A DNA stretch of 37,028 nt from a virus (Duplodnaviria; Heunggongvirae; Uroviricota; Caudoviricetes): IMG/VR virus record IMGVR_UViG_2690316076_000004, one strand, 5' to 3'. Each line of letters opens with the position of its first letter. Positions within the stretch are counted from its first letter, which is position 1. Positions 1,614 to 37,028 of this stretch are shown one piece after another. Both the position numbers and the translations under genes were made by a program. The notes under the pieces are model-generated. The model made no database searches. It was not told the origin of the DNA and saw only the letters and a program-made list of their open reading frames with translations.

Positions 1614-1653
1614 GCCCCTATCGTTATAATACGCGGTAGGGGCGTTTTTGTTT
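1614..1653 (+). terminator. putative intrinsic terminator
   Basis: GCCCCTA...TAGGGGC stem followed by GTTTTTGTTT. Confidence 0.5.
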
Positions 1654-1662
1654 GGAAATGGT

Positions 1663-3342
1663 ATGAAAACTAAACTGTATTCGTATATTCGCTTCTCGTC
1701 TATGCGTCAGAATGATGGTTCGAGTTATGAACGACAAATCAGGATGGCGAGAGAGGTTGCGGCAAAGTATGACCTTGAACTGGTAAATGATTATCAGGAT
1801 CTGGGTGTATCTGCGTTTAAGGGTGCTAACTCTAAAACAGGGGCGCTATCTCGTTTCCTTGATGCAATTGGTAGATCCGTTCCTGTTGGTAGCTGGCTAT
1901 TCATTGAAAACTTGGACCGCTTATCCCGTGCCGATATTGTCAGTGCGCAGGAGTTATTCCTTTCAATCATCCGTAGGGGGATAACCATTGTTACTGGCAT
2001 GGATAACAAGATCTACTCGCTGGATACTGTTACCGCTAACCCGATGGACCTGATGTTCTCCATCCTTTTATTCATCCGTGGTAATGAGGAAAGCCAGACT
2101 AAGCGCAATCGTACTAACTCAAGCGCACTGATTAAGATTAAAGCTCATCAAGAAAATCCACAAAATCCGGCAGTGGCAATCGAGGAAGTTGGAAAGAATA
2201 TGTGGTGGACTGATACCACTTCCGGTTATGTGTTGCCTCATCCTACATACTTCCCTGTTGTTCAGGAGATTGTGGAATTACGGAAGAATGGACGTTCAAC
2301 CGCCGAAATACTGGATCACCTTAACGAGACATATACACCGCCACCAGCAGTAAGCAACAAGAAGCATTCAAAATGGTCACGGGCAATGGTTGAAAGGTTG
2401 TTCCATACCCGCGCTTTGATTGGTATCAAGGAAGTCTCTGTAGATGGTGTTAACTATGAGTTAAAGGATTATTACCCTCGTGTTATTGATGATGCTACGT
2501 TCTATCACCTTAAGAAAAATATTGGTGCTAGAGCATGGAACTTTGGAGACAAGGAAGAAGTTAAACCGATCCCCCTGCTTAGTGGTATTGGCCTATTGAA
2601 ATGTGATCATTGCGGTTGCGCTATGGTTAAAGTGAAGGGAACGAACAAACGTTCTGACCAGTATCGTTATACATGTGATGCGACCCGTTCACGTAGACTT
2701 GATTGCGAGCATCCAAACTGGAGTTTTCGAGGTGATCAATTAGAGAAAGCTGTATTGCAATTGCTGGCTGATAAAATATGGATTGCTGAGGACAAGGCTA
2801 ATCCGGTTCCGGCGTTGAAAGTACAGGTTGATGAAATATCACGCAAGATTGATAACCTGATTGCCCTTTCTGCTATGACAGGAGCAACGAAGGAGCTAGC
2901 CGATCAGATTACTACCCTCAATAGCGAGCGTGAAACACTCTACAATCAGATCAAGATGGCAGAAGAGGAAATGTATTCTGTGGACTCTCAAGGCTGGGAG
3001 AAGCTCGCAGAATTTGATTTAGAAGATGTTTATAACGAGGAACGACTAAAGGTCCGGTTTAAGATTAAGCAAGCTCTAAAGCGGATCGGGTGTAGCAGGA
3101 TTGACAGAAACAAAAACTTGTTTGTACTGGAATACATCGATGGAAAAACCCAGAGAGTTGTAATAGAAAATTCAAGAGGAACGAGGAAAGGCCGGATCTT
3201 CATTGATTTGAAGACTATCAATGATAGGCAGATTCTGGAGAGCAACGGGCTTGTTCTGCATCCATGTTTAGACATGCTGACAGATAAGAACTGGAAACCA
3301 GAAGAGGAAATACCAGGTCCATTACAGGAATTTGGAATTTAA
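1663..3342 (+). CDS. large serine recombinase (resolvase/integrase family)
   Basis: N-terminal resolvase catalytic pattern (YSYIRFSS...Q), recombinase domain, Cys-rich zinc ribbon (CDHCGC...CDATRSRRLDCEH), C-terminal coiled-coil; track start at 1648 is TTG, ATG at 1663 preferred. Confidence 0.85.
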   Translation: MKTKLYSYIRFSSMRQNDGSSYERQIRMAREVAAKYDLELVNDYQDLGVSAFKGANSKTGALSRFLDAIGRSVPVGSWLFIENLDRLSRADIVSAQELFLSIIRRGITIVTGMDNKIYSLDTVTANPMDLMFSILLFIRGNEESQTKRNRTNSSALIKIKAHQENPQNPAVAIEEVGKNMWWTDTTSGYVLPHPTYFPVVQEIVELRKNGRSTAEILDHLNETYTPPPAVSNKKHSKWSRAMVERLFHTRALIGIKEVSVDGVNYELKDYYPRVIDDATFYHLKKNIGARAWNFGDKEEVKPIPLLSGIGLLKCDHCGCAMVKVKGTNKRSDQYRYTCDATRSRRLDCEHPNWSFRGDQLEKAVLQLLADKIWIAEDKANPVPALKVQVDEISRKIDNLIALSAMTGATKELADQITTLNSERETLYNQIKMAEEEMYSVDSQGWEKLAEFDLEDVYNEERLKVRFKIKQALKRIGCSRIDRNKNLFVLEYIDGKTQRVVIENSRGTRKGRIFIDLKTINDRQILESNGLVLHPCLDMLTDKNWKPEEEIPGPLQEFGI

Positions 3343-27191: not shown

Positions 27192-29099
27192 TTAGAACGA
27201 TGTTACCCAGCTACGGCCTCTATTTGGGCGTCTGGCGATGTTTTGACGTTGCGGTCGTGTGATTGGCTTAGTTTCTTCTATTTGCTCGTCAGATTGCGAT
27301 TTAGGAGCTTCTACGGATTCTTCGACAACACGGTTTAAGCTGTCTTTCATTGCAATGAGTTTATCCCATGACATTTTTGAAAGAACGTAGCGAGAAGCAG
27401 CATAGCTATAAACCAGACAGTCGAGAGCCTCGTTTCGGGTACTACCTGGATTTTTCACCCAACGCACGCCAGTAGTAGTACGCTTGATGGATTCACTCAA
27501 AAGCTGATCGAGATAATCATCAGGAACGGTTTCTGATATTTCTAAGCCAATATGAGGATTATCTTTCAGGTTTCTAACCAGCATTTCACGAACAGCGGAT
27601 TTCCCAACGTTAACACCCAGCATAAGCAATTCATGACCACCTGTACGGGTAGGTTTAACCGGAATCACTGGAGCATTACCAGATGAACTACCTTTGATAG
27701 CGTGTAGGTTCTTCCACTTGCCGCAAATACGGTATCCGGCTTGAGTGAATCGACCGTTCGATGTATCAAGGAAACTGGCGAGCATTGGTACACGTTCACC
27801 ATTAACGTTATAGAATTTGGTTTTCTTGAAGTTAACCAGACGATCCCAAACAGGTGATTCATATCGTTCACAGTTATGATCGTAAAAGCTGCGGTGATCC
27901 AGAATGTAAACCTTATCTTTCGCTACACCTAAGATGGTAGATTCTGCGCGGTCCAATTGCTGGTCAATTCCTGAGCACAAGAAAATCACGTCATCAGGGA
28001 TATTCTCGATAGAAACATCTGTTTTGAGTTGTTCCAGTTCATTTGCTTCTACTGCCGTGTCCTGATCGTCGTATACCTTGCCTAACACGGTGTTATAAAA
28101 TGATTGTAAATCAAAGGATTGCCACGCATGGCTAAAATCAACAACACAAGCGCGGATCGTGCTGAAAGGTGAATACAGACGGCTAATCCAGAATCCAGCT
28201 ACTTCACTTTCTCTCGTTACTCGCCATTCACCAGCAGCCACCGCCCTGATCCGCTCTCCTTCTGTCCATGCGTTCTTACAGTGGGGGCAAATATAACGAG
28301 CGGTATCAGGATCGGGTAAGTTCTTACCATCGATGTTACGCCATTCAAATTGAACGTTTTCCCACTCGATCACCTGGTGTTCCCCGCAATGAGGACACGG
28401 AACAAAAAACATACGCATATCGCTTGATAACCATTGCTGGTTAATGCTTCCGAGCTTACTGGTCGGGGTGCTGGATACGACTAATCGACCTTCATCGCCA
28501 AAGGTAGTTAAACGGTTAGCAGCCAGTGCCACCGGATCACCTTCTTCTGAGGCTGTAGCAGCATCGATTTCGTCAAGTAATCCAACCTTTGCGGTCTTAC
28601 CGCGTAGGGTTGATGGACTGGTAAGCGATACCATGTAAAGGAAGTGATTCGTTTTTAGCTGTAGCTGGTTATTGTTGTTAACCGCATTGCGATCATTCTT
28701 GTCTGTAACAACGTCTTTTAATGCATCACATGCTTCGATAGACGGTCGGATCTTACCAGCGAGATATTGAGACATTTCTTTAGCGGTTGATTGTCCGATA
28801 ATCATATTGCATGGATCGTTAGCCATCTGGTTAAACAGGATACCGTTCAGGATGGTAGTCTTTCCGATCTGTGCACTGGTCATCAGGACATACTTTTTCT
28901 TGTTCTCAAGGAAAGGTGCATCAATCATGCCTTTTTGGAATGACAACAATTTAACTTTATCCCCAGCTTGAGGACCATCTACCAGCACCATATTCGCTTC
29001 GCACCATTCAGACGGAAGGAGTTTAGGCGGTGGAGTGATATATTTTGCGGCATTTTTAAGAATCTTTTTTAATTTGGCCTTGTTCGAAATCAGTTTCAT
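27192..29099 (-). CDS. terminase large subunit, lambda gpA-like
   Basis: [26 protein letters not shown] (Walker A-like), [21 protein letters not shown] all mirror remembered gpA motifs; ATG at 29099 with GAGGG RBS preferred over track start 29174. Confidence 0.93.
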
Positions 29100-29142
29100 G
29101 TAATTACCCTCATTACGAAATATGAAGGTATTTATTAAATTG

Positions 29143-29170
29143 TTGATATTTTGATAAATACGGGTATTAA
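29143..29170 (+). promoter_or_regulatory. candidate sigma70-type promoter in divergent terL/HTH-gene intergenic region
   Basis: TTGATA (29143-29148), 16-nt spacer, TATTAA (29165-29170), about 15 nt upstream of the 29185 ATG. Confidence 0.35.
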
Positions 29171-29184
29171 TCAAAGGGGGTTGT

Positions 29185-29787
29185 ATGCTAATTAATCAGC
29201 AAGAAAGAGATGAATTAGAATTAGCCTTGTCTTGTACCGATCATGAATATCGTTTGCCAGTTAAGCACCATCACAAGAAGACTGATTACACAACATCCGG
29301 CTTTAGTCGCGAGGAAGCGAAGCAAATTTTAATAGAGTTGTATCGCGATCAGGGATATACAGATATTCACAACTTCTTTAAGAAGCACCGAACATCACAG
29401 ACAGAGTTCCAGAGAGTCCGTGAATGGTTTGATTTTGATATCAAGCGTTATTATCGAGTGGATGACGGTCCGATCTATCGGTTGCAGTGGACACCGATCA
29501 GGGAAGTGTTGAAACAGAAGAGACTAAATCACGCTATTACACGCTATCGTAACGTGGCTTTTAAGAAAGGATATGGTGATACAAGGGAACTATTCGTTGA
29601 ACTCGCTAACGTGCGATATAGCCATTATTACAGGAATCCTAAAGAGTTCTTCGAAGTGCTGCGCAAGGTTGATATAAGTCGGGGTACATACTATTCACGG
29701 TTGAAGAAGTACGGGATTAAGGCAGAGTTCTTTATGAGTATTGACGATGGAGAACTTTTTCCGATAAAATGTAAGTCCTCTAAATAA
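29185..29787 (+). CDS. HTH DNA-binding protein (C-terminal resolvase-type helix-turn-helix)
   Basis: C-terminal [15 protein letters not shown] resembles Hin/resolvase-type HTH; AAGGGGG RBS. Confidence 0.5.
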
Positions 29788-29815
29788 AGGTGAACATTCA
29801 CTTTAATTTGGAGAA

Positions 29816-30046
29816 ATGACTATGACTACTAAAGCTACTCGCGGTCGTCCTTGCCGTTTTGATCGTGAACAACTGGCAGCGATTGTAAAAGCGTACTATC
29901 AAGCACCGAAAGGTAAAGCCGAAAAAGAGCAAGTATTGAGTGAACACGGTATTTCAATCGCTCAATTCTACAAATCACTCCATAAAGTTGATTTGAAATT
30001 CTTTGTTCAGGTTGACGGTGAAATGGTAGAAGCAACAGGAATTTGA
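29816..30046 (+). CDS. small HTH protein, paralog of 33578-33757
   Basis: RGRPCRFDREQL ... GISIAQFYKSL parallels MARPVKFTREMI ... GIDRSGFYKLM in the 33578 gene; GGAG RBS. Confidence 0.5.
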   Translation: MTMTTKATRGRPCRFDREQLAAIVKAYYQAPKGKAEKEQVLSEHGISIAQFYKSLHKVDLKFFVQVDGEMVEATGI

Positions 30047-30053
30047 TTCTCTA

Positions 30054-30082
30054 GGCCAATCCTTCGGGGTTGGCCTTTTTTA
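30054..30082 (+). terminator. intrinsic terminator
   Basis: GGCCAATCC-TTCG-GGGTTGGCC stem followed by TTTTTTA. Confidence 0.8.
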
Positions 30083-30086
30083 TATC

Positions 30087-30314
30087 CGCTCAAAACTGAG
30101 CACATCTCTAAGTCATTGATTCTTCCGATGAGTCCAGATTTGGACTGATCTATAGATGCCCTCAAAACTGAGGAGATGTGCTTAAAGTTCAGCGTATCTA
30201 TCTAAGTGGTTGATTCTTTCGAGAAATTCAAACTTGAATCAATCGGCGCAAAACTGCGCTCATCTCTAACCTATTGATTCTTCCGATAAATCCAAATCTG
30301 GATGCATCAGATAC
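30087..30314. repeat. three-unit degenerate repeat (~70-85 bp each) with IHF-consensus motifs and short palindromes
   Basis: units start CAAAACTG(A/C)G; each contains ATTGATTCTT whose complement fits WATCAANNNNTTR, followed by GTCCAGATTTGGAC / ATTCAAACTTGAAT / ATCCAAATCTGGAT near-palindromes. Confidence 0.7.
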
Positions 30315-30344
30315 AAAAAAGCCCAGCGCAATTATGCGCTGGGC
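30314..30344 (-). terminator. intrinsic terminator after Rha-like gene
   Basis: perfect 10-bp stem GCCCAGCGCA-ATTA-TGCGCTGGGC followed on minus strand by TTTTTTGT. Confidence 0.85.
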
Positions 30345-30350
30345 GATTAA

Positions 30351-31184
30351 TCAGATCCCAAAATCAACAAGGGAAATTACGTTACCTGATTCACGAATCT
30401 GTTTAGCAGCTTTGTTTTGAATCAGAATAGTGTTATTTGGCTGCGGCAGTTTAAGAGTTGCTTTCTGTTCTTCTTCCAAAACGCCCAATTCAACCAGCAC
30501 CGGAAGAACATCAACAGTAAACTCAAGCTGGTAATGAGCATTCATGCGGCAGAAAGACAGAGAAGAGTCATTAGCAACATACCCACACGGCTTGTTATTT
30601 TCATCATAGACGCGCTCAATGTAGCCAGCAGTACGTAAGGCCGTCAGTGCTTGTTTAACCTTCGTAGCGCCCTTTTTAGCGCCTAACAGACGTGTCATAG
30701 AATGGCTATCTACGGATTTGCGAATGTGTAGCTCAATCAGTTTTTTATTTTTGCGTTTTTCATCTAATGCCAGTTCGATCCAGTCGGTTTCTTCAAAGTC
30801 CGCATACGGGTTAACAGGAGTATTATTGGCGGTTTTCAGTTTCTCTTCCAGATAATTCCAACGGTCAACCAGTTGGCGAGTAAATTCCGGTACGTTTTGA
30901 GCAATCAAGACAATCGAATCTAAGCGACCTTGCTCACCCTCAAACACATAATCTTTAACAGTAACAGCAAACCCTAAGTTATTGATTTTCTCGAAATTCT
31001 GCGTTGCAGGTTTTCGGATAACTTGGCGTTCAACCAGTCGGTTCATAGAAGTTTCAAGGTTTGAAAAACGAACTCCAATAAGGTCGGCAATTTCACGAAG
31101 AGTCATTTTTGCAACTTCGTTATCAACAACCAGAGACACGGAAGCAGTTTTAACAGCAGTATTCATAGTAGTAACAGTATTCAT
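30351..31184 (-). CDS. Rha/ORF6N-type phage regulatory protein (antirepressor-like)
   Basis: N-terminal MTLREIADLIGVRFSNLETSMNRL resembles Rha/ORF6N DNA-binding pattern; family call from memory. Confidence 0.5.
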   Translation of the reverse strand: MNTVTTMNTAVKTASVSLVVDNEVAKMTLREIADLIGVRFSNLETSMNRLVERQVIRKPATQNFEKINNLGFAVTVKDYVFEGEQGRLDSIVLIAQNVPEFTRQLVDRWNYLEEKLKTANNTPVNPYADFEETDWIELALDEKRKNKKLIELHIRKSVDSHSMTRLLGAKKGATKVKQALTALRTAGYIERVYDENNKPCGYVANDSSLSFCRMNAHYQLEFTVDVLPVLVELGVLEEEQKATLKLPQPNNTILIQNKAAKQIRESGNVISLVDFGI

Positions 31185-31273
31185 AGTAAAAATTCCCCTT
31201 AAACGGTTTAATGATTTGGTCCTCCTAGTTCCGGCATCACCACCGGAACAATTTTATTTATAATAGAAATTTA

Positions 31274-31606
31274 TTACCAATCGATTTCTACTTGGTCTTC
31301 TTCATAATAAGGAATCGCATATTCATAACGCCAGTTTTCGATGATTTCACGTTCTTCATTAGTAAGAAGGTGATTGCTAACTGGAGTTGCATTGTGATTA
31401 CCAGCTTCGAATTGCTCGCGAACTTCCAGCATTGCATGAATACCAGTTAAGGACATCAGATCAAACGGAACATGCATACTACGGGAGATAGTTTCACGGG
31501 ATACACCCCAATCATTTTCTACATGGCTAGGGGTTACAGAAACGGTTTTGCCGGAGATTTTAACAGTCCAGTCATACAGGGATTTAGTGATGGTAAATTC
31601 TTTCAT
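31274..31606 (-). CDS. hypothetical protein
   Basis: 110-aa ORF with AAGAGGA RBS; preceded by a strong promoter-like element. Confidence 0.55.
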   Translation of the reverse strand: MKEFTITKSLYDWTVKISGKTVSVTPSHVENDWGVSRETISRSMHVPFDLMSLTGIHAMLEVREQFEAGNHNATPVSNHLLTNEEREIIENWRYEYAIPYYEEDQVEIDW

Positions 31607-31662
31607 GTTACATCCTCTTTACAAATCTAGGTCAAATAGGTTCAAAGTTGTCAAGTGCGATA

Positions 31663-31704
31663 ATCATAAAAAAGTCATAAAATTTTGTCAATACCCCTTG
31701 ACAA
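31663..31704 (-). promoter_or_regulatory. sigma70-type promoter with overlapping palindromic operator
   Basis: minus strand TTGACA (31686-31691), 17-nt spacer, TATGAT (31663-31668); inverted repeat TTGTCAA-N6-TTGACAA (31685-31704) overlaps the -35. Confidence 0.5.
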
Positions 31705-31726
31705 GACGCCAAAGGGTTGACCTAAC

Positions 31727-32185
31727 TTACAGCATATCTAAGCCTTCATCGTAACCGTAGAAGCCATTCTGAGAAGAGAAACAGATTGGAGCGTAGTCTT
31801 CGTCTTCCTCATCTTCTTCATCTTGTTCTGGGGCTTCCTGAGCGGGTTGTTTACCGTAATCAGCCATAATCTGGTCAAGATCGGCGATCCCATAGTAAGA
31901 GCCTAAATCAACATCGTATTCACGAACATCAAACGGCAGGTCATCACGAACAATAATTGCTGGTAGATTCTGGTATTGTTCACGATCTTCATCAGTGAAG
32001 CAGTCAACTACCACCGTAGGACGACCATTGCGTTTAAGAGCATAGAAAGCAGTTGAATAGTTGGAGTCTTCGGAATGACGAATGATGTTATAACCACGAT
32101 TAGCGAAAACTTCTAGCATATGGAAGTTGCCGTAGTTTTCAGAGTCCAGACCCAGAAGTACGAAAGGAGTTTTAGTATTGATCAT
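31727..32185 (-). CDS. acidic protein (C-terminal Asp/Glu run)
   Basis: 152-aa ORF with AGAGGA RBS; C-terminus EAPEQDEEDEEDEDY. Confidence 0.55.
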   Translation of the reverse strand: MINTKTPFVLLGLDSENYGNFHMLEVFANRGYNIIRHSEDSNYSTAFYALKRNGRPTVVVDCFTDEDREQYQNLPAIIVRDDLPFDVREYDVDLGSYYGIADLDQIMADYGKQPAQEAPEQDEEDEEDEDYAPICFSSQNGFYGYDEGLDML

Positions 32186-32766
32186 AGTGGTATCCTCTAA
32201 AAAGAAAGTGAATCAATCTAATATTATTTATAAAGAGAAAATTCTTGTTATTATGAAAGGTGATTGGATTCAGTCGGCTTCGCCTCCTTCATGATTTTTG
32301 ATTAAATCATCGTCAAAACGAAGAAGTATCTTTAGAATATAAGAATCTTTCTTTTGGAGAAATAATAATCAGGAAGCAATTTAGCAACCGAAGGTTGCAA
32401 TCCCGAAGGGATACCAATACCTTTCATGATCATTAAAGTGATTATTACTATCTTTCTAGAATCAGTTAGTAACTAGTTTAAAATCCCTTTCGAGAAAATC
32501 CTTTCAGAAGTGATTCTCGATGCCACGCAGTGGCGTCGCAGACGTTTGAGAGTGAGCGAAGCGAGCGAGCAAACTAGTTAATTCCTTCTAAGACCATCTA
32601 GTATCATCTAGTTTAAATTAGTTGTTACTAGAAGCAATTGGTTGGCGCTTCGCGCAGTCGGGCTAAAGCCCTCCTAATATCTTTCTGGTTATTTGTTGTT
32701 TTTAGTTTTACACATGAGCGTAGCGAATGTGTTATATAATATCTATGCACGCCGAATCCCTGCTTT

Positions 32767-33010
32767 TGCCCCTCGCTAAGTTAATGTTTTATAAAGAGTT
32801 TTTCTCACCAATTCCTTTCAGGGGCAAATTTCAGGGGCAAAAATTAGATTTTCAGGGGCAATTATTGGCATTTCAGGGGCAAAAATGAGGGGCAAAATCA
32901 CCGTTTCCCAGAATTTCAGGGGCAAAAATATAGGGTTTCAGGGGCAAAAATGGGATGTGGAATCTAGGGGATTTTGGTTCAGGGGCAAAAATTCAGAATT
33001 TCAGGGGCAA
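32767..33010. repeat. iteron-like array of TTCAGGGGCAA
   Basis: exact 11-mers at 32817, 32830, 32851, 32872, 32915, 32937, 32978, 33000, variants at 32886 and ~32963, one inverted core at 32767-32775; spacing mostly 21-22 bp or multiples. Confidence 0.85.
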
Positions 33011-33100
33011 TTCCCATCAAATATTTTGATAGAAAATTCCTGTATATTATTTAATCAAAAAATCACCAAAAAGCGGCGTAAGTTAATGATTTAAAAAGAA

Positions 33101-33126
33101 TTGTCAAAAGGTCTCCGTGCTATAAT
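33101..33126 (+). promoter_or_regulatory. possible extended -10 promoter
   Basis: TTGTCA then TGC-TATAAT (TGnTATAAT) at 33118-33126; -35 spacing suboptimal (14 nt). Confidence 0.3.
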
Positions 33127-33206
33127 AGGTTATAAAGGTTGATAATCCTGCTCTACCATTTTCAAACAAAAATTTTGATAGTCATTTCTCGCTTAGGTCA
33201 AGTGTA

Positions 33207-33235
33207 TTGACAACTGTCAAGGATTATTTTATACT
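33207..33235 (+). promoter_or_regulatory. strong sigma70-type promoter
   Basis: TTGACA (33207-33212), 17-nt spacer, TATACT (33230-33235); overlaps TTGACAA/TGTCAA near-palindrome. Confidence 0.5.
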
Positions 33236-33371
33236 TTTTCTCACTGGTGGGGGTTGAAATTTTCTAAACAGTCCCCATATAGATGATAAGCAAGAATTTC
33301 CACGTTATAAATACATGTGTGAAATGATTGTTCACTTCTGAAAATCTCCTGATTCACTGCTAATTCATACA

Positions 33372-33400
33372 GCACTGGTTAGATATACAGTGCTTTTTCG
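33372..33400 (+). terminator. hairpin + T-tract (leader terminator/attenuator 1)
   Basis: AGCACTG-GTTAGATATA-CAGTGCT followed by TTTT. Confidence 0.4.
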
Positions 33401-33457
33401 GTTGAATATTGTACGAATTGATTAATAATTAATCTTCTCTTTAGCAATTCGTGCTCC

Positions 33458-33484
33458 CACTGATCGGATATACAGTGGTTTTAC
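33458..33484 (+). terminator. hairpin + T-tract (leader terminator/attenuator 2)
   Basis: CCACTG-ATCGGATATA-CAGTGG followed by TTTTA; same CACTG..GATATA..CAGTG architecture as 33372. Confidence 0.4.
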
Positions 33485-33523
33485 AGGGTTTTCTGAAAAT
33501 CATTTTATAAATACAAGTGTTCA

Positions 33524-33544
33524 GAGCGAAATGCTCTTTTTTAA
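33524..33544 (+). terminator. hairpin + T-tract directly upstream of small HTH gene
   Basis: AGAGC-GAAAT-GCTCT followed by TTTTTT, about 20 nt before the RBS of the 33578 gene. Confidence 0.45.
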
Positions 33545-33577
33545 GAAATTATTAATCCACATGTGAGGAATCGACTG

Positions 33578-33757
33578 ATGGCTAGACCTGTTAAGTTCAC
33601 TCGTGAAATGATTGTTGATATTGCTAAACGCTTTTACAGCGACACTGAGCGAGGCGGGGAAAACTTCTTTAAGAAGGAAGGAATTGATAGAAGCGGATTC
33701 TACAAGCTAATGAAGAAATACGAAATTCAGGTAAAGATTAACGTTCAAGTTTGTTAA
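33578..33757 (+). CDS. small HTH protein, paralog of 29816-30046
   Basis: ATG at 33578 with TGAGGAA RBS (track start 33563 is GTG); sequence parallels the 76-aa protein. Confidence 0.5.
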   Translation: MARPVKFTREMIVDIAKRFYSDTERGGENFFKKEGIDRSGFYKLMKKYEIQVKINVQVC

Positions 33758-33871
33758 TCCACTTTCACTGAGAATTATATGATGGCTTTAAAAAAGAAAA
33801 AGCCTCCTTTGCTGCAACAAGGGAGGCTTGAAATGAACAATTAAAACTAACTTTCCACAGGAGTATTTATA

Positions 33872-34834
33872 ATGTTATTTTCCGCTAACTTTTTCACTAA
33901 CGAAGTAACCAACGCTAAAGCAGTTATCAAATTTGGCACCGAAGCAAACAAGAAGATTCAGCCGAAAGTTGTTGCTCATGTTTCCTTTGCGCAGCAGAAA
34001 TCCGCTTTCGCTGGCTTTAAAGCACATCGTGAAGCACTGATCGCGGCTGGCTTTGGTGTTGACGGTAAACTGCCTAACGGCATTCGTAAAGCAATCGACC
34101 GCGTTAAACCTGCTAAAGACGTTGCAGTAGACCACATCGTTACTTTCACCGTTAAGAACTCTTCTGAACTGTTCCACCTAGTGATTGCTGGTGATACTGC
34201 TATCGTTTCCGCTCCTAACATGGATTTTCAGGATACCGCTGATTGCAACATTACCTTTGGTCGTCGTAAAGAAGTTACCGGAAAAGCTAAACTGAACTTC
34301 ACCAAATCCGGCAATCCTTACTTTGCTGTATTCTTTAACAGCCACGCTACTGAGAAAGAAGTAGTAGAACTGGTTGCATATGAAGGTGAAGAAAAAGCAC
34401 GTATTGAATCTTGCGACGCTTTCGTAGAACTGGAAGCACAGGTTAATGCTGTTTCTCCGGTTGCTGTTGAAGATCGTTTCTCTGCACTGGAAGCACAGAT
34501 CGCAGAACTGAAAGCTGCACTGAAAGAAAAAGACCAGATCATCGAAGCACAGAAAGCTGAGATTGAAGAACTGAAAGCTAAAGAAGTTGCTCCGGTTGCT
34601 GTTGAAGCAGATCGGGAAGTTGAATCTAAAGACTTCTTTACTCAAGCGGTTGAATCTAAAGACAAACAAGCTCTTTGGATTCTGCTTAACGAAAAGCGTA
34701 CTGTTGCAGACGTTGCAGAATGGAACAAATACCTGATTAAGAAAAATGGTTCTTCCGTTCAATTCATCGATTTAATGACAGTTAAAGTTTTTGATGCGTT
34801 CGAAAATGTGTTCGACGTTCGCAAAGCAGCTTAA
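33872..34834 (+). CDS. hypothetical protein with host-like high-expression codon usage and central coiled-coil
   Basis: 320-aa ORF with AGGAG RBS; codons dominated by CTG, CGT, GGT, AAC, GAC, ACC unlike the AT-rich structural genes; coiled-coil EAQIAELKAALKEKDQIIEAQKAEIEELKAK. Confidence 0.65.
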   Translation: MLFSANFFTNEVTNAKAVIKFGTEANKKIQPKVVAHVSFAQQKSAFAGFKAHREALIAAGFGVDGKLPNGIRKAIDRVKPAKDVAVDHIVTFTVKNSSELFHLVIAGDTAIVSAPNMDFQDTADCNITFGRRKEVTGKAKLNFTKSGNPYFAVFFNSHATEKEVVELVAYEGEEKARIESCDAFVELEAQVNAVSPVAVEDRFSALEAQIAELKAALKEKDQIIEAQKAEIEELKAKEVAPVAVEADREVESKDFFTQAVESKDKQALWILLNEKRTVADVAEWNKYLIKKNGSSVQFIDLMTVKVFDAFENVFDVRKAA

Positions 34835-34860
34835 TTTTTAATTTAATTGGAGACCCTACT

Positions 34861-35202
34861 ATGGCAACTTTAAACGAAAAAGCACTGTCCCGTAAAACTC
34901 TGAAAGAGAAAAACATGATTCTTTCTGAAACGCTAAAACAGACTAATGCTGAGTGTGAATTTTTGACCATTAAACTTTCGATTAAAGAGAAAGAATGCAA
35001 TGAGCTAATGGAAAAGTACAAATCCTTACATGATAATTACGTGAAACTTGGTGAAGGATTTAAAGCCATGCAAGAAGACTACAAGAAATCATTGAGGGAA
35101 CAGATTAAACTACTTGAAGAATTGAAAGGGTATAGAGAAAAGTCCGTTAAAGAAAAGAAAATACAGAAGATGAAAAACAAAGGATTGCGTCTTGTTGCTT
35201 AA
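34861..35202 (+). CDS. coiled-coil protein
   Basis: 113-aa Lys/Glu-rich ORF with GGAG RBS. Confidence 0.55.
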   Translation: MATLNEKALSRKTLKEKNMILSETLKQTNAECEFLTIKLSIKEKECNELMEKYKSLHDNYVKLGEGFKAMQEDYKKSLREQIKLLEELKGYREKSVKEKKIQKMKNKGLRLVA

Positions 35203-35204
35203 GA

Positions 35205-35232
35205 CAATAAAAAAGGGACTCCGAAGAGTCCC
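35205..35232. terminator. intrinsic terminator (strong on minus strand)
   Basis: GGGACTC-CGAA-GAGTCCC; minus-strand downstream TTTTTTATTG. Confidence 0.65.
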
Positions 35233-35304
35233 TAGTAAGTTTAGGTTAGGTTTGCACAACAAAGATGAGGTTATAATGAACATAATGCTACATTATTCTT
35301 TAAA

Positions 35305-35335
35305 GCCAGAAAAATAACCGCCCCGAAGGGGCGGG
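35305..35335 (-). terminator. intrinsic terminator of leftward terS transcript
   Basis: CCGCCCC-GAAG-GGGCGG; minus-strand downstream TTATTTTTCTGG. Confidence 0.6.
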
Positions 35336-35492
35336 AGGATTAACACTCAATCTATACTTGTTATGTTTTTATGTTGTATAGATCACTGACTATGAAAACA
35401 CTGTACTGGAGTGTGTTTTATGGCTTTTAATCGGGAATCCTCAAAGAAGATCCCCTGTTAATAACCATAAGGAGAAAAGGCAGATTACACTA

Positions 35493-35777
35493 TTATTTAG
35501 TCTGTTTGAAAACAAACGTTAAAAATTCGATTAAGCAATATACCCAGAGTACGGTCATCATCAAATGCATAGCAATAGTTGGATGGAAGTTAAAAAGTGT
35601 CATACTAACTAGGCCAACAATATAAGAAATTCCTTCGACAATTAACGCAAGGCTAGCAAATGCAACAAACGCACCTAAGAATAATTCGCCTCGTTCTTTC
35701 GGTTCGGTTCCGAGTTTATAAGCAGAGATAGCAGCCAGAATAGTAATGATGACAGCATAGGTAATAAAAGTAGCCAT
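35493..35777 (-). CDS. small 3-TMD membrane protein (possible holin)
   Basis: 94 aa, three hydrophobic helices; AAGAGGA RBS; no firm family assignment. Confidence 0.5.
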   Translation of the reverse strand: MATFITYAVIITILAAISAYKLGTEPKERGELFLGAFVAFASLALIVEGISYIVGLVSMTLFNFHPTIAMHLMMTVLWVYCLIEFLTFVFKQTK

Positions 35778-35871
35778 AGTTTTATATCCTCTTAAAAGTT
35801 AAGCGGGGGATGTTCTCCCCCGTAGGCGTTGACCCGTTCAACACCCTTCATACATTTATTTATAACGCGTT

Positions 35872-36426
35872 TTAAGACACATCAAATTCATCGTCTTCAT
35901 CTGGTTCTTGTTCCGGTTCATCGATTAATGGTAATTCTTCTTCCTCGTCTTCTCCCAAATCCGCATTTTCGAACAAGTCCCCTACTTCATTTAAACGACG
36001 CTCGATGATCTCCCTTAGCTTATTCTTCAATGTTTTCTGGTCGGTGGCAGATTCTAAAATTTCTAAAGCATCGATTGTGGCGATCTGCAAAATAGTCTGT
36101 TTCACTTTCCCGCAATATTCCGCTAGTTCCTGTTCTACATAACCGACCGGAATCAGGAGGTTCATTGCTTCCTGGTTCTCTCGTTCGGCTGCATCTGCCA
36201 ATGCTCTCTCACGGCGTAATTTCTCTACGTCGATTTGTTCTTTGATGGAAGTGTTTTTTAACGGGTTAATGATGTTCTTTAGCACCCAATCGCAACCTTC
36301 TTTGGCTGGAACACGTCGTGTGTTGGTGTTAAATGGCAATCCCCTTTCTATCCATCGCTTACCGCCACCATTCAATGAATAGCCGTATAAACGGGAAATT
36401 TCTGTAAGGGTTAATTCTTCTTTCAT
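35872..36426 (-). CDS. terminase small subunit, lambda Nu1-like
   Basis: N-terminal LTLTEISRLYGYSLNGGGKRWIERGLPF and EKLRRERALADA resemble remembered Nu1 (QLADIFGASIRTIQNW...RGGGKG... ENEKLRRE); acidic C-terminus; GGAGGA RBS. Confidence 0.75.
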   Translation of the reverse strand: MKEELTLTEISRLYGYSLNGGGKRWIERGLPFNTNTRRVPAKEGCDWVLKNIINPLKNTSIKEQIDVEKLRRERALADAAERENQEAMNLLIPVGYVEQELAEYCGKVKQTILQIATIDALEILESATDQKTLKNKLREIIERRLNEVGDLFENADLGEDEEEELPLIDEPEQEPDEDDEFDVS

Positions 36427-36546
36427 TGGTTATCCTCCATTAAATTTGCGTAATTTTATTTATTGGTTTTACGCACAATCTAAGCGCCTAAATCGCATTC
36501 TAACGAAGGGAAAGATCCAGTAATGGTAAGGGCTAGGAAGTGGGTT

Positions 36547-36573
36547 AATAGTCGCGTAGCGACCGCGCTAGGA
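36547..36573. other. candidate cos-type cleavage region (GC-rich, partly symmetric)
   Basis: AATAGTCGCGTAGCGACCGCGCTAGGA is a GC-rich island with internal GTCGC..GCGAC symmetry, ~120 bp upstream of the Nu1-like gene start; GCGACC echoes the lambda cohesive end. Confidence 0.25.
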
Positions 36574-36722
36574 CTGCACTGATCACGTTTTAAAATCTCA
36601 CACGCGTATCAAATACCGGGGTGCCGAAAACTCCCTTTATTTCACCCGTGGAACAGTACCTTTTGATTTTGTCAAGTCTTTTTTATAAATAATCGAAAAT
36701 ATTTTTCACACGAGGGCAAATC

Positions 36723-37028
36723 ATGAAGACTAAAGATATTAAGATTGAATTTGAAACTGTTGATGACGTTCGGGAACATCGCATTGATTCTACTGGCTGC
36801 ATCTTCCAGCTTACTAACTCCCCTATTGGATTGATTATCTATGTAGCAGAAGATGACGTGTACGCTATATGGGATGGACAGGATGAGTTTAAAGGCGGGA
36901 ATAGCCATCTGATCAATACTCATGAGGGATTTGATCCGACTCCTGTCTGTATGCTTGCTTATCACGTAACACTGGATGAACTACCGGAAGCAAGCGCGCG
37001 TATCCGTAGAATGAAAGACATTAAGTGA
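36723..37028 (+). CDS. hypothetical protein
   Basis: 101-aa ORF with GAGGG RBS, preceded by TATAAATA-containing promoter-like region; stop at last bases of window. Confidence 0.55.
   Translation: MKTKDIKIEFETVDDVREHRIDSTGCIFQLTNSPIGLIIYVAEDDVYAIWDGQDEFKGGNSHLINTHEGFDPTPVCMLAYHVTLDELPEASARIRRMKDIK

Follow-up and report, generated by a model that had tools for sequence, protein, structure and literature searches.

A helix-turn-helix module present in four copies in three small prophage proteins, candidate regulators of prophage transcription

The 37,028-nucleotide viral sequence IMGVR_UViG_2690316076_000004 (IMG/VR; Caudoviricetes), referred to here at its full length as the window, is a complete ~37-kb prophage. 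Its 8-kb control region (29185-37028) houses three small genes, p200, p74 and p59, and here we describe their products as paralogues that, judging from comparisons of family profiles, carry one module of ~60 residues in four copies. The module is predicted to be a divergent, unannotated branch of the trihelical helix-turn-helix (HTH) superfamily, nearest to the IS3-OrfA/resolvase group and with an extra C-terminal β-hairpin, and the proteins make up a new, narrowly distributed family of an ordinary protein kind. Our preferred explanation, held at about even confidence, is that they regulate the prophage's own transcription by sequence-specific DNA binding, at sites that are invariant between lineages.

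All three open reading frames (ORFs) are found where a preliminary description of the window, made from the DNA letters alone, had placed them. The p200 gene (29185-29787, plus strand) encodes a 200-aa protein with an N-terminal helix followed by two tandem HTH + β-hairpin modules, and p59 (33578-33757, plus strand) encodes a single module of 59 aa, the length and start (33578) already given. The remaining ORF was described as one of 76 aa; the start codon and ribosome-binding site (RBS) indicated by its homologues set the true product at 74 aa with a start at 29822 (p74, 29822-30046, plus strand). These are real genes under purifying selection: length is conserved in 25-43 homologue clusters for each of the three proteins, and the ratio of nonsynonymous to synonymous substitution rates (dN/dS) is 0.05-0.34 wherever dS is unsaturated, being about 0.1 for p200. 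All three products are basic (pI 9.2-9.6). The 43 clusters of p200 homologues are all annotated as 'hypothetical protein' and contain no Pfam domain. The p59 protein occurs in two sequence types (I and II), which are ~56% identical to each other.

The motifs that had suggested a relationship (GISIAQFYKSL in the 76-aa ORF, GIDRSGFYKLM in p59 and a corresponding one in p200) are present, and the proposed paralogy is borne out by significant matches between family profiles. The count of three motifs fell short by one, as the module has four copies, two of them in p200; nor does the motif form the very end of p200, where a β-hairpin follows it. BLASTP supports only the pair p59 and p200 (E 1e-6 for p200 aa 133-186 and E 0.005 for aa 40-87), the comparison of the 76-aa product with p59 being not significant. 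Profile-profile comparison (hhalign) of the family alignments A1, A2 and A3, one per family, links p74 with p59 (E 7e-11, prob 97%), p200 aa 40-86 with p59 (E 1e-8), p200 aa 32-98 with p74 (E 6e-8), the second half of p200 with p59 (E 1.6e-9) and with p74 (E 3.6e-6), and the two halves of p200 with each other (E 1e-5). The first p200 module spans aa ~32-99 (29278-29481, plus strand; helices 42-56, 61-67 and 72-82, strands 86-92 and 97-99), and the second, which holds the p200 motif, aa ~125-192 (29557-29760, plus strand; helices 134-147, 152-161 and 166-176, strand 180-186). When all six-frame ORFs of at least 35 aa in the window and in six related loci are searched with module HMMs, only p200, p74 and p59 match.

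The AlphaFold2 model of p74, obtained with the family alignment (pLDDT 78), has a disordered arm (residues 1-9), three helices (15-27, 32-41 and 46-55) and a β-hairpin (60-71), while that of p200 (pLDDT 72) has the N-terminal helix and then two modules connected by a disordered linker. The module is thus composed of an extended N-terminal arm (RGRPxRF in p74, with RGRP as its core; ARPVKF in p59), a three-helix HTH and a C-terminal β-hairpin. The HTH superfamily is characterized by a three-helix bundle containing the HTH, with an optional β-hairpin wing after helix 3, and the predicted module has this architecture. Helix 3 is its best-conserved part: that of p74 (GISIAQFYK) is near-invariant from E. 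coli to Proteus, and in p59 variation affects helices 1 and 2 but neither helix 3 nor the arm MARPVKFTRE.

The preliminary description did not recognize the family, and the databases agree: p200, p74 and p59 have no match at threshold in Pfam, PHROGs, NCBIfam or PADLOC, and a sequence profile search of the PDB with the family returns chance-level matches only. Foldseek searches of p74 against BFVD and of p200 against the PDB give nothing below E 0.1 (the top viral match is a phage "transposase" at E 0.14), and the closest, weak structural neighbours are trihelical DNA-binding domains. A search of 1.84 billion representative proteins with a combined p74 and p59 profile yields just 12 at E <= 1e-3. 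The remote matches beyond the family itself (E 4e-7 to 4e-4) are proteins of 4-7 or more tandem repeats with strong HTH_Tnp_1, HTH_23, HTH_28 or HTH_7 assignments; among them, P0097, P0098, P0099, P0102 and P0103 are 258-981 aa long and contain 4 to >10 tandem modules of the HTH_Tnp_1/HTH_23 type. The remote relatives also match Pfam Sf6_terminase and Phage_terminase. Structure prediction and profile searches, the checks named in the preliminary description, yield a predicted HTH fold and remote links to HTH-group profiles. Its term 'resolvase-type HTH' is apt as a superfamily-level resemblance, HTH_7 being among the remote links, and does not hold as family membership, no curated cut-off being reached.

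The nearest Pfam model, at sub-threshold level, is HTH_Tnp_1 (PF01527, the N-terminal HTH of the IS3-type transposase OrfA). Like HTH_23 and HTH_28, it resembles the module in having ~50 residues, three helices and a basic stretch ahead of helix 1, and it shares the hydrophobic-aromatic pattern of helix 3 (GIS..T/Q.F/Y.Y+). Against its gathering threshold of 24.1 bits, p74 scores 12.9-13 bits; sub-threshold matches are seen in 5 of the 23 members (best E 0.017), and P0104, a distant relative of 55 aa, reaches 22.9 bits. The module differs from HTH_Tnp_1 in its added C-terminal β-hairpin and in standing alone or as a tandem pair, without a transposase and in the context of phage regulation. The C-terminal domain of resolvases and invertases (HTH_7, PF02796; Hin residues 139-190) likewise has a GRP arm ahead of helix 1, which in Hin occupies the minor groove, and a helix 3 of the pattern GI(S/G)..(F/L)Y(K/R). 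Its gathering threshold of 23.8 bits is not reached; 3 of the 23 members match (best E 0.059), and hhalign to the Hin DNA-binding domain, with a manually entered Hin sequence, gives prob 7.5% and E 0.005 with the GRP arm and helix 3 in register. Unlike HTH_7 proteins, the module has no catalytic domain attached, and the prophage's own large serine recombinase is without such a domain. The family occurs in a single prophage lineage only, that of E. coli, Salmonella and Proteus. Scans of species-representative genomes with P0096 and with the p74 alignment give no loci, and P0104 is found in none of the viral contigs.

For the comparison of cis elements we used 34 related loci, 10 from E. coli, Salmonella and Proteus genomes and 24 from IMG/VR. 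Gene order is constant in all 34: the terminase large subunit gene (TerL, minus strand), p200 and p74 (plus), a Rha-like gene, a small ORF and a 152-aa gene (minus), ~1.3 kb of non-coding DNA, p59 and a gene for a ~320-340-aa protein (plus) and, further on, a small-terminase (TerS)-like gene (minus); synteny is identical across the prophages of the three genera. The control region is strongly mosaic among these loci, and covariation within it is therefore informative.

This bears on a version of the preliminary description's proposal, namely that the three proteins bind the repeats flanking them, either the iterons (32810-33012) or a set of 80-bp repeats (30080-30312), as replication or partition adaptors. 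The repeats are physically close to the genes, and p59 is co-transcribed with the protein that matches the iterons; on the comparative evidence we nevertheless consider the proposal exceedingly unlikely. The iteron array of the window (plus strand) consists of 8-9 copies of TTCAGGGGCAAAAAT, and three unrelated iteron sequences (TTCAGGGGCAAAAAT, TAGTGTAGG and CTAGGGAT) occur among related loci. In 34 of 34 loci the iteron type equals the type of the ~320-340-aa coiled-coil protein encoded downstream of p59, and the iterons therefore belong to that protein and not to p59. Its types are not detectably homologous to each other and have no family assignment; the representative in the window, a 320-aa coiled-coil protein (33872-34834, plus strand), is a candidate and, from this match, likely iteron-binding initiator. 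A p59 of type I is combined with the main iteron types G and T in 2 and 8 loci, respectively, and one of type II in 15 and 8. As a candidate iteron binder p59 was accordingly rejected, since both of its types occur with both main iteron types; the change of specificity together with the repeat sequence that marks iteron-binding proteins is not seen in p59.

The three structured repeats of ~80 bp that follow p74 (30080-30312, plus strand) are likewise not the target of the conserved proteins, being dispensable. Their copy number is 0, 1 or 3, and most relatives that retain p74 and p200 have one copy (L010, L011) or none (L003-5, L008, L009); for this reason they were rejected both as cos and as a binding array for p74 or p200. 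Of the 58 E. coli genomes with the region (5426 complete genomes examined), 20 have these repeats, which are found only in this prophage lineage. The units sit between two convergent terminators, and each forms two small hairpins in which pairing is kept despite base changes (GCTCAAAACTGAGC / CCTCAAAACTGAGG / GCGCAAAACTGCGC).

The comparison thus splits the cis elements of the region into lineage-variable ones (iterons and 80-bp repeats) and invariant ones, namely the TATAAATA-class motif, the palindrome of a leftward promoter, the control region between the terminase gene and p200, and the spacer after p59. Because the arm and helix 3 of p59 and helix 3 of p74 are invariant as well, the simplest reading is that the sites they read do not vary between lineages. 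Regulation at invariant sites draws on the homology and predicted fold of the modules, purifying selection, synteny, the lack of covariation with the repeats, the basic character of the proteins, the invariant arm and helix 3, the conserved cis islands beside the genes, the enrichment of a motif in intergenic DNA and the layout of the cassette that contains p59; that the proteins bind DNA, which sites they bind and whether they activate or repress are inferences. Within this explanation, p200 would correspond to two single-module proteins joined covalently, with two heads, and may function as a pseudo-dimer.

The p59 gene is the first of a rightward operon, and its product would be, by analogy, a Cro- or Cop-repressor-like protein that sets transcription of the replication cassette. 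The cassette runs from the iterons through a strong promoter, a 340-nt leader, a terminator, p59 and a spacer with a candidate countertranscript to the iteron-matched ~320-aa protein. The same order is found in the copG-rnaII-repB, copR-rnaIII-repR and copB-copA-repA units of plasmids, in which Cop repressors work together with a countertranscript RNA, and in lambda cro/cII-oop-O; it is on account of this shared layout that we propose a Cro/Cop-like role for p59. The likeness to lambda Cro, P2 Cox, 186 Apl and the Cop repressors (CopR of pIP501, CopG of pMV158, CopB of R1) is one of layout only, a small DNA-binding-type protein being encoded first; as in plasmid cop-rep units, a spacer with a leftward promoter-like element and a terminator, for a candidate antisense RNA, and then an initiator-like gene matched to upstream iterons follow. 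There is no sequence or fold relation of p59 to Cro, CopG or CopR (Cro and CopG have different folds, and CopR has an Xre-type HTH). The cassette further differs from the Cro/Cop systems in the conserved terminator just ahead of p59, and autoregulation, the RNA and the initiator function are only putative here.

Several elements of the cassette are well delimited. A strong sigma-70-type promoter (TTGACA-17-TATACT; 33207-33235, plus strand), which overlaps TTGACAACTGTCAA, lies 340 nt upstream of p59; in L010 it is inherited as one block with p59 type I, and p59 type II is also seen with this leader. The untranslated leader downstream of it (33242-33545) contains two CACTG-N10-CAGTG hairpins with T-runs (33373-33397 and 33458-33482) in addition to the conserved intrinsic terminator before p59 (33523-33543), features that suggest control by attenuation or antitermination, or a leader RNA. 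Directly upstream of p59, at 33505-33543 (plus strand), a TTATAAATA motif is followed by a conserved hairpin (GAGCG..GCTC) and a T-run; every lineage has TATAAATA, hairpin and T-run and then ATTAATCCA before the ribosome-binding site, with pairing in the hairpin kept through sequence changes. Covariation of p59 with the upstream leader or promoter was considered and rejected: type II is found with three different leader/promoter types, and the leader type of the window is found with both p59 types. An AATCC-type motif near p59 is not enriched.

On the other side of the gene, the conserved spacer between p59 and the putative initiator (33758-33871) is kept even where the downstream gene has been replaced. 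Its minus strand carries TATAAATA (33864-33871), which overlaps the RBS and start of the 320-aa gene, and then a hairpin and a U-run, and may encode a leftward RNA of ~70 nt (about 33857 to 33789; fold z = -2.7). The position of this candidate RNA resembles that of lambda oop or of a plasmid countertranscript. Left of the iterons, ~600 bp of non-coding DNA (32186-32800, with no match in Rfam) contain several GC-rich hairpins and a 14-nt tandem repeat, AAAATCCCTTTCAG (32480-32509); the part at 32430-32535 is conserved even in Proteus (75%).

At the other end of the control region, p200 and p74 form a two-gene operon that starts in an 85-bp region (29100-29184) shared back-to-back with the terminase/structural operon. 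This divergent region contains, in an alignment of 10 loci, the inverted pair GTATTTAT-N18-ATAAATAC, and stands out as an island of conservation from E. coli and Salmonella to Proteus (82% identity by blastn over 29067-29242, while the flanking proteins are ~51-56% identical). An intrinsic terminator conserved in all lineages (30053-30076, plus strand) ends the operon. In our explanation, p200 and p74 would regulate the late promoter in this region and/or dispersed sites of the TTATAAATA or TATAAATA class. Late activators of the Mu Mor/C and RinA/ArpU types are comparable, being small HTH proteins encoded beside the start of the terminase/structural operon with a shared control region; p200 and p74 differ from Mor and RinA in having no Pfam or PHROGs similarity to them and in being divergently transcribed, and activation is putative. 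A further invariant element is a leftward sigma-70-type promoter (TTGACA-17-TATGAT; 31663-31704, minus strand), present in all lineages including Proteus. It is a strong promoter whose -35 element is overlapped by the palindrome TTGTCAATACCCCTTGACAA (31685-31704), conserved in the E. coli, Salmonella and Proteus lineages and hence a candidate operator of an invariant regulator. TTGACAA is not enriched window-wide (10 occurrences, 8.7 expected), although control-region intergenic DNA accounts for 6 of these occurrences.

TTATAAATA occurs 8 times in the window (0.85 expected), and [TA]ATAAATA, of which it is the core, 11 times in 3.2 kb of intergenic DNA where 1.3 are expected from intergenic-only shuffles (0/1000). 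The motif starts at 943, 4449, 11851, 16878, 29129, 31255, 32225, 33306, 33506, 33864, 35857, 36457 and 36684, preceding TerL, TerS, p200, p59, the Rha-like gene, the 152-aa gene and others, mostly in the orientation of the gene, and the diverged Salmonella and Proteus relatives have sites at the orthologous positions. The motif is similar to the -10 element of T4 late promoters and the H-NS nucleation motif. GTGAA..TTCAC pairs after TAAATA motifs (3 found, 1.1 expected) are suggestive only.

Several points weigh against the proteins being regulators at invariant sites. No binding site can be assigned, and no family member reaches the threshold of any curated family. The p59 types covary neither with the iterons nor with the leader type nor with the downstream protein, which fits an invariant target and fits equally a role without a specific DNA site. 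The conserved terminator directly upstream of p59 poses a difficulty for the expression of p59, and the lack of any recognizable repressor in the prophage poses one for the logic of the circuit.

Two further readings are connected with the absence of a recognizable repressor. In one, p200 and/or p74 would be the lysogeny (immunity) repressor itself, expressed in the lysogen from the conserved divergent region and shutting dispersed operators in the manner of the P1 C1 repressor, which has many dispersed, asymmetric operators; here TTATAAATA-class sites or TTGACAA palindromes would serve as operators, and a bipartite p200 monomer would read an asymmetric site. We think this unlikely. No CI-like repressor gene is recognizable anywhere in the prophage, the motif is dispersed before most operons including late ones, and neither the leftward-promoter palindrome nor the reading heads of p74 and p59 vary; on the other hand, the p200-p74 operon itself bears the motif, which may be merely a -10 element, and the reading is in any case a sub-case of regulation at invariant sites, with the opposite sign. 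The other, broader and distinctly improbable, is that the family constitutes a promoter-recognition or silencing system of a lineage without a recognizable repressor, in which p59, p74 and/or p200 would read the dispersed, T4-late-like TTATAAATA(C/A) elements before nearly every operon. The operons read would include the terminase genes, the early genes and the candidate antisense RNA, and the AT-rich minor groove would accommodate the N-terminal RGRP/ARP arm. If true, this would be a new class of phage transcription control (an activator, a partner in sigma appropriation or a dispersed repressor like P1 C1).

As p200 adjoins TerL, it could be a packaging accessory, a cos/terminase specificity factor acting with TerL rather than a transcription factor. 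The two proteins diverge in step (51%, 75% and 68% identity for p200; 56%, 80% and 56% for TerL), small-terminase DNA-binding domains are HTHs of the same broad group as the module, as the Sf6_terminase and Phage_terminase matches indicate, and the TerS-like gene is oddly distant (6.7 kb). Yet linkage alone accounts for the co-divergence, a recombination breakpoint lies inside p200 in Salmonella, a separate TerS-like protein is present (phrog_57, E 6e-11), p200 is transcribed away from the packaging genes, and p200, p74 and p59 have no TerS match in Pfam or PHROGs, all of which makes such a role very unlikely. P2 Cox and 186 Apl act both as Cro-like proteins and as excisionases, and p59, as the first early gene, occupies their position. 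The prophage uses a large serine recombinase, and no recombination directionality factor (RDF) is annotated; p59 or p74 might be the RDF of the 559-aa large serine integrase (1663-3342) and bind the integrase rather than, or besides, DNA. An RDF binds its cognate integrase, in the coiled-coil/DBD2 region, and switches it to attL x attR recombination. RDFs of large serine integrases are small and structurally diverse and share no common fold; AlphaFold-multimer pulldown is the best way to find them (PMC12286644). Against this role, a distance of 26-32 kb separates the genes from that of the integrase, and three paralogues with four modules exceed the need for an RDF. An identical p74 (WP_000208372.1) accompanies hicB-site and ycdX-site integrases that are 92% identical, a contrast too small to decide the matter; as the integrases of these two types are 87-100% identical (L002, L012 and L013), covariation with the integrase carries no information on an RDF role. 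We rate it a fairly small possibility, and prefer regulation at invariant sites for the three proteins.

Roughly 1% of complete E. coli genomes harbour the prophage lineage, which occurs likewise in Salmonella and Proteus and has no cultured or annotated relative; natural lysogens include E. coli DEC5A (NZ_CP038394) and PD23 (NZ_CP074052). The segment 29000-34000 occurs in 58 of 5426 complete E. coli genomes at 80-95% identity, in every case on the chromosome, and by megablast has no match in INPHARED phages or PLSDB plasmids. Where genomes are annotated, the insertion site is hicB or ycdX, and the integrase of the window shares 100% identity with the one from a copy inserted in ycdX; a literature search for ycdX- or hicB-integrated prophages of this kind returned nothing relevant. 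All genes of the control region are annotated as "hypothetical protein" except that of the Rha-family regulator, and no CI/Cro-type repressor, replication helicase or primase is recognizable in the whole window. Placing three "hypothetical" genes in one HTH family gives concrete candidates for regulators of this lineage. The value of the assignment lies mostly in annotation and in steering experiments; the proteins themselves are of an ordinary kind, small phage HTH proteins, and the more unusual features sit in the control region around them.

As for the rest of the window, the large serine recombinase gene (1648-3342) encodes Resolvase, Recombinase and Zn_ribbon_recom domains. The structural genes follow on the minus strand (3416-29174), the last being that of a gpA-type TerL (27192-29174), and the 6.7-kb control region lies between TerL and the TerS-like gene (35872-36426). 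Upstream of TerS, a GC-rich dyad (~36540-36590) could be cos. An Rfam search of 29000-37028 gives two sub-threshold chance matches only. Cargo differs between copies of the prophage: a gene for a 113-aa coiled-coil protein (34861-35202) is seen in the window only, while the L3Cip3 copy (L002, 4806-8194) has a DEAD/DEAH helicase and a GIY-YIG nuclease beside the integrase and an IS3 inside its tail-fibre gene.

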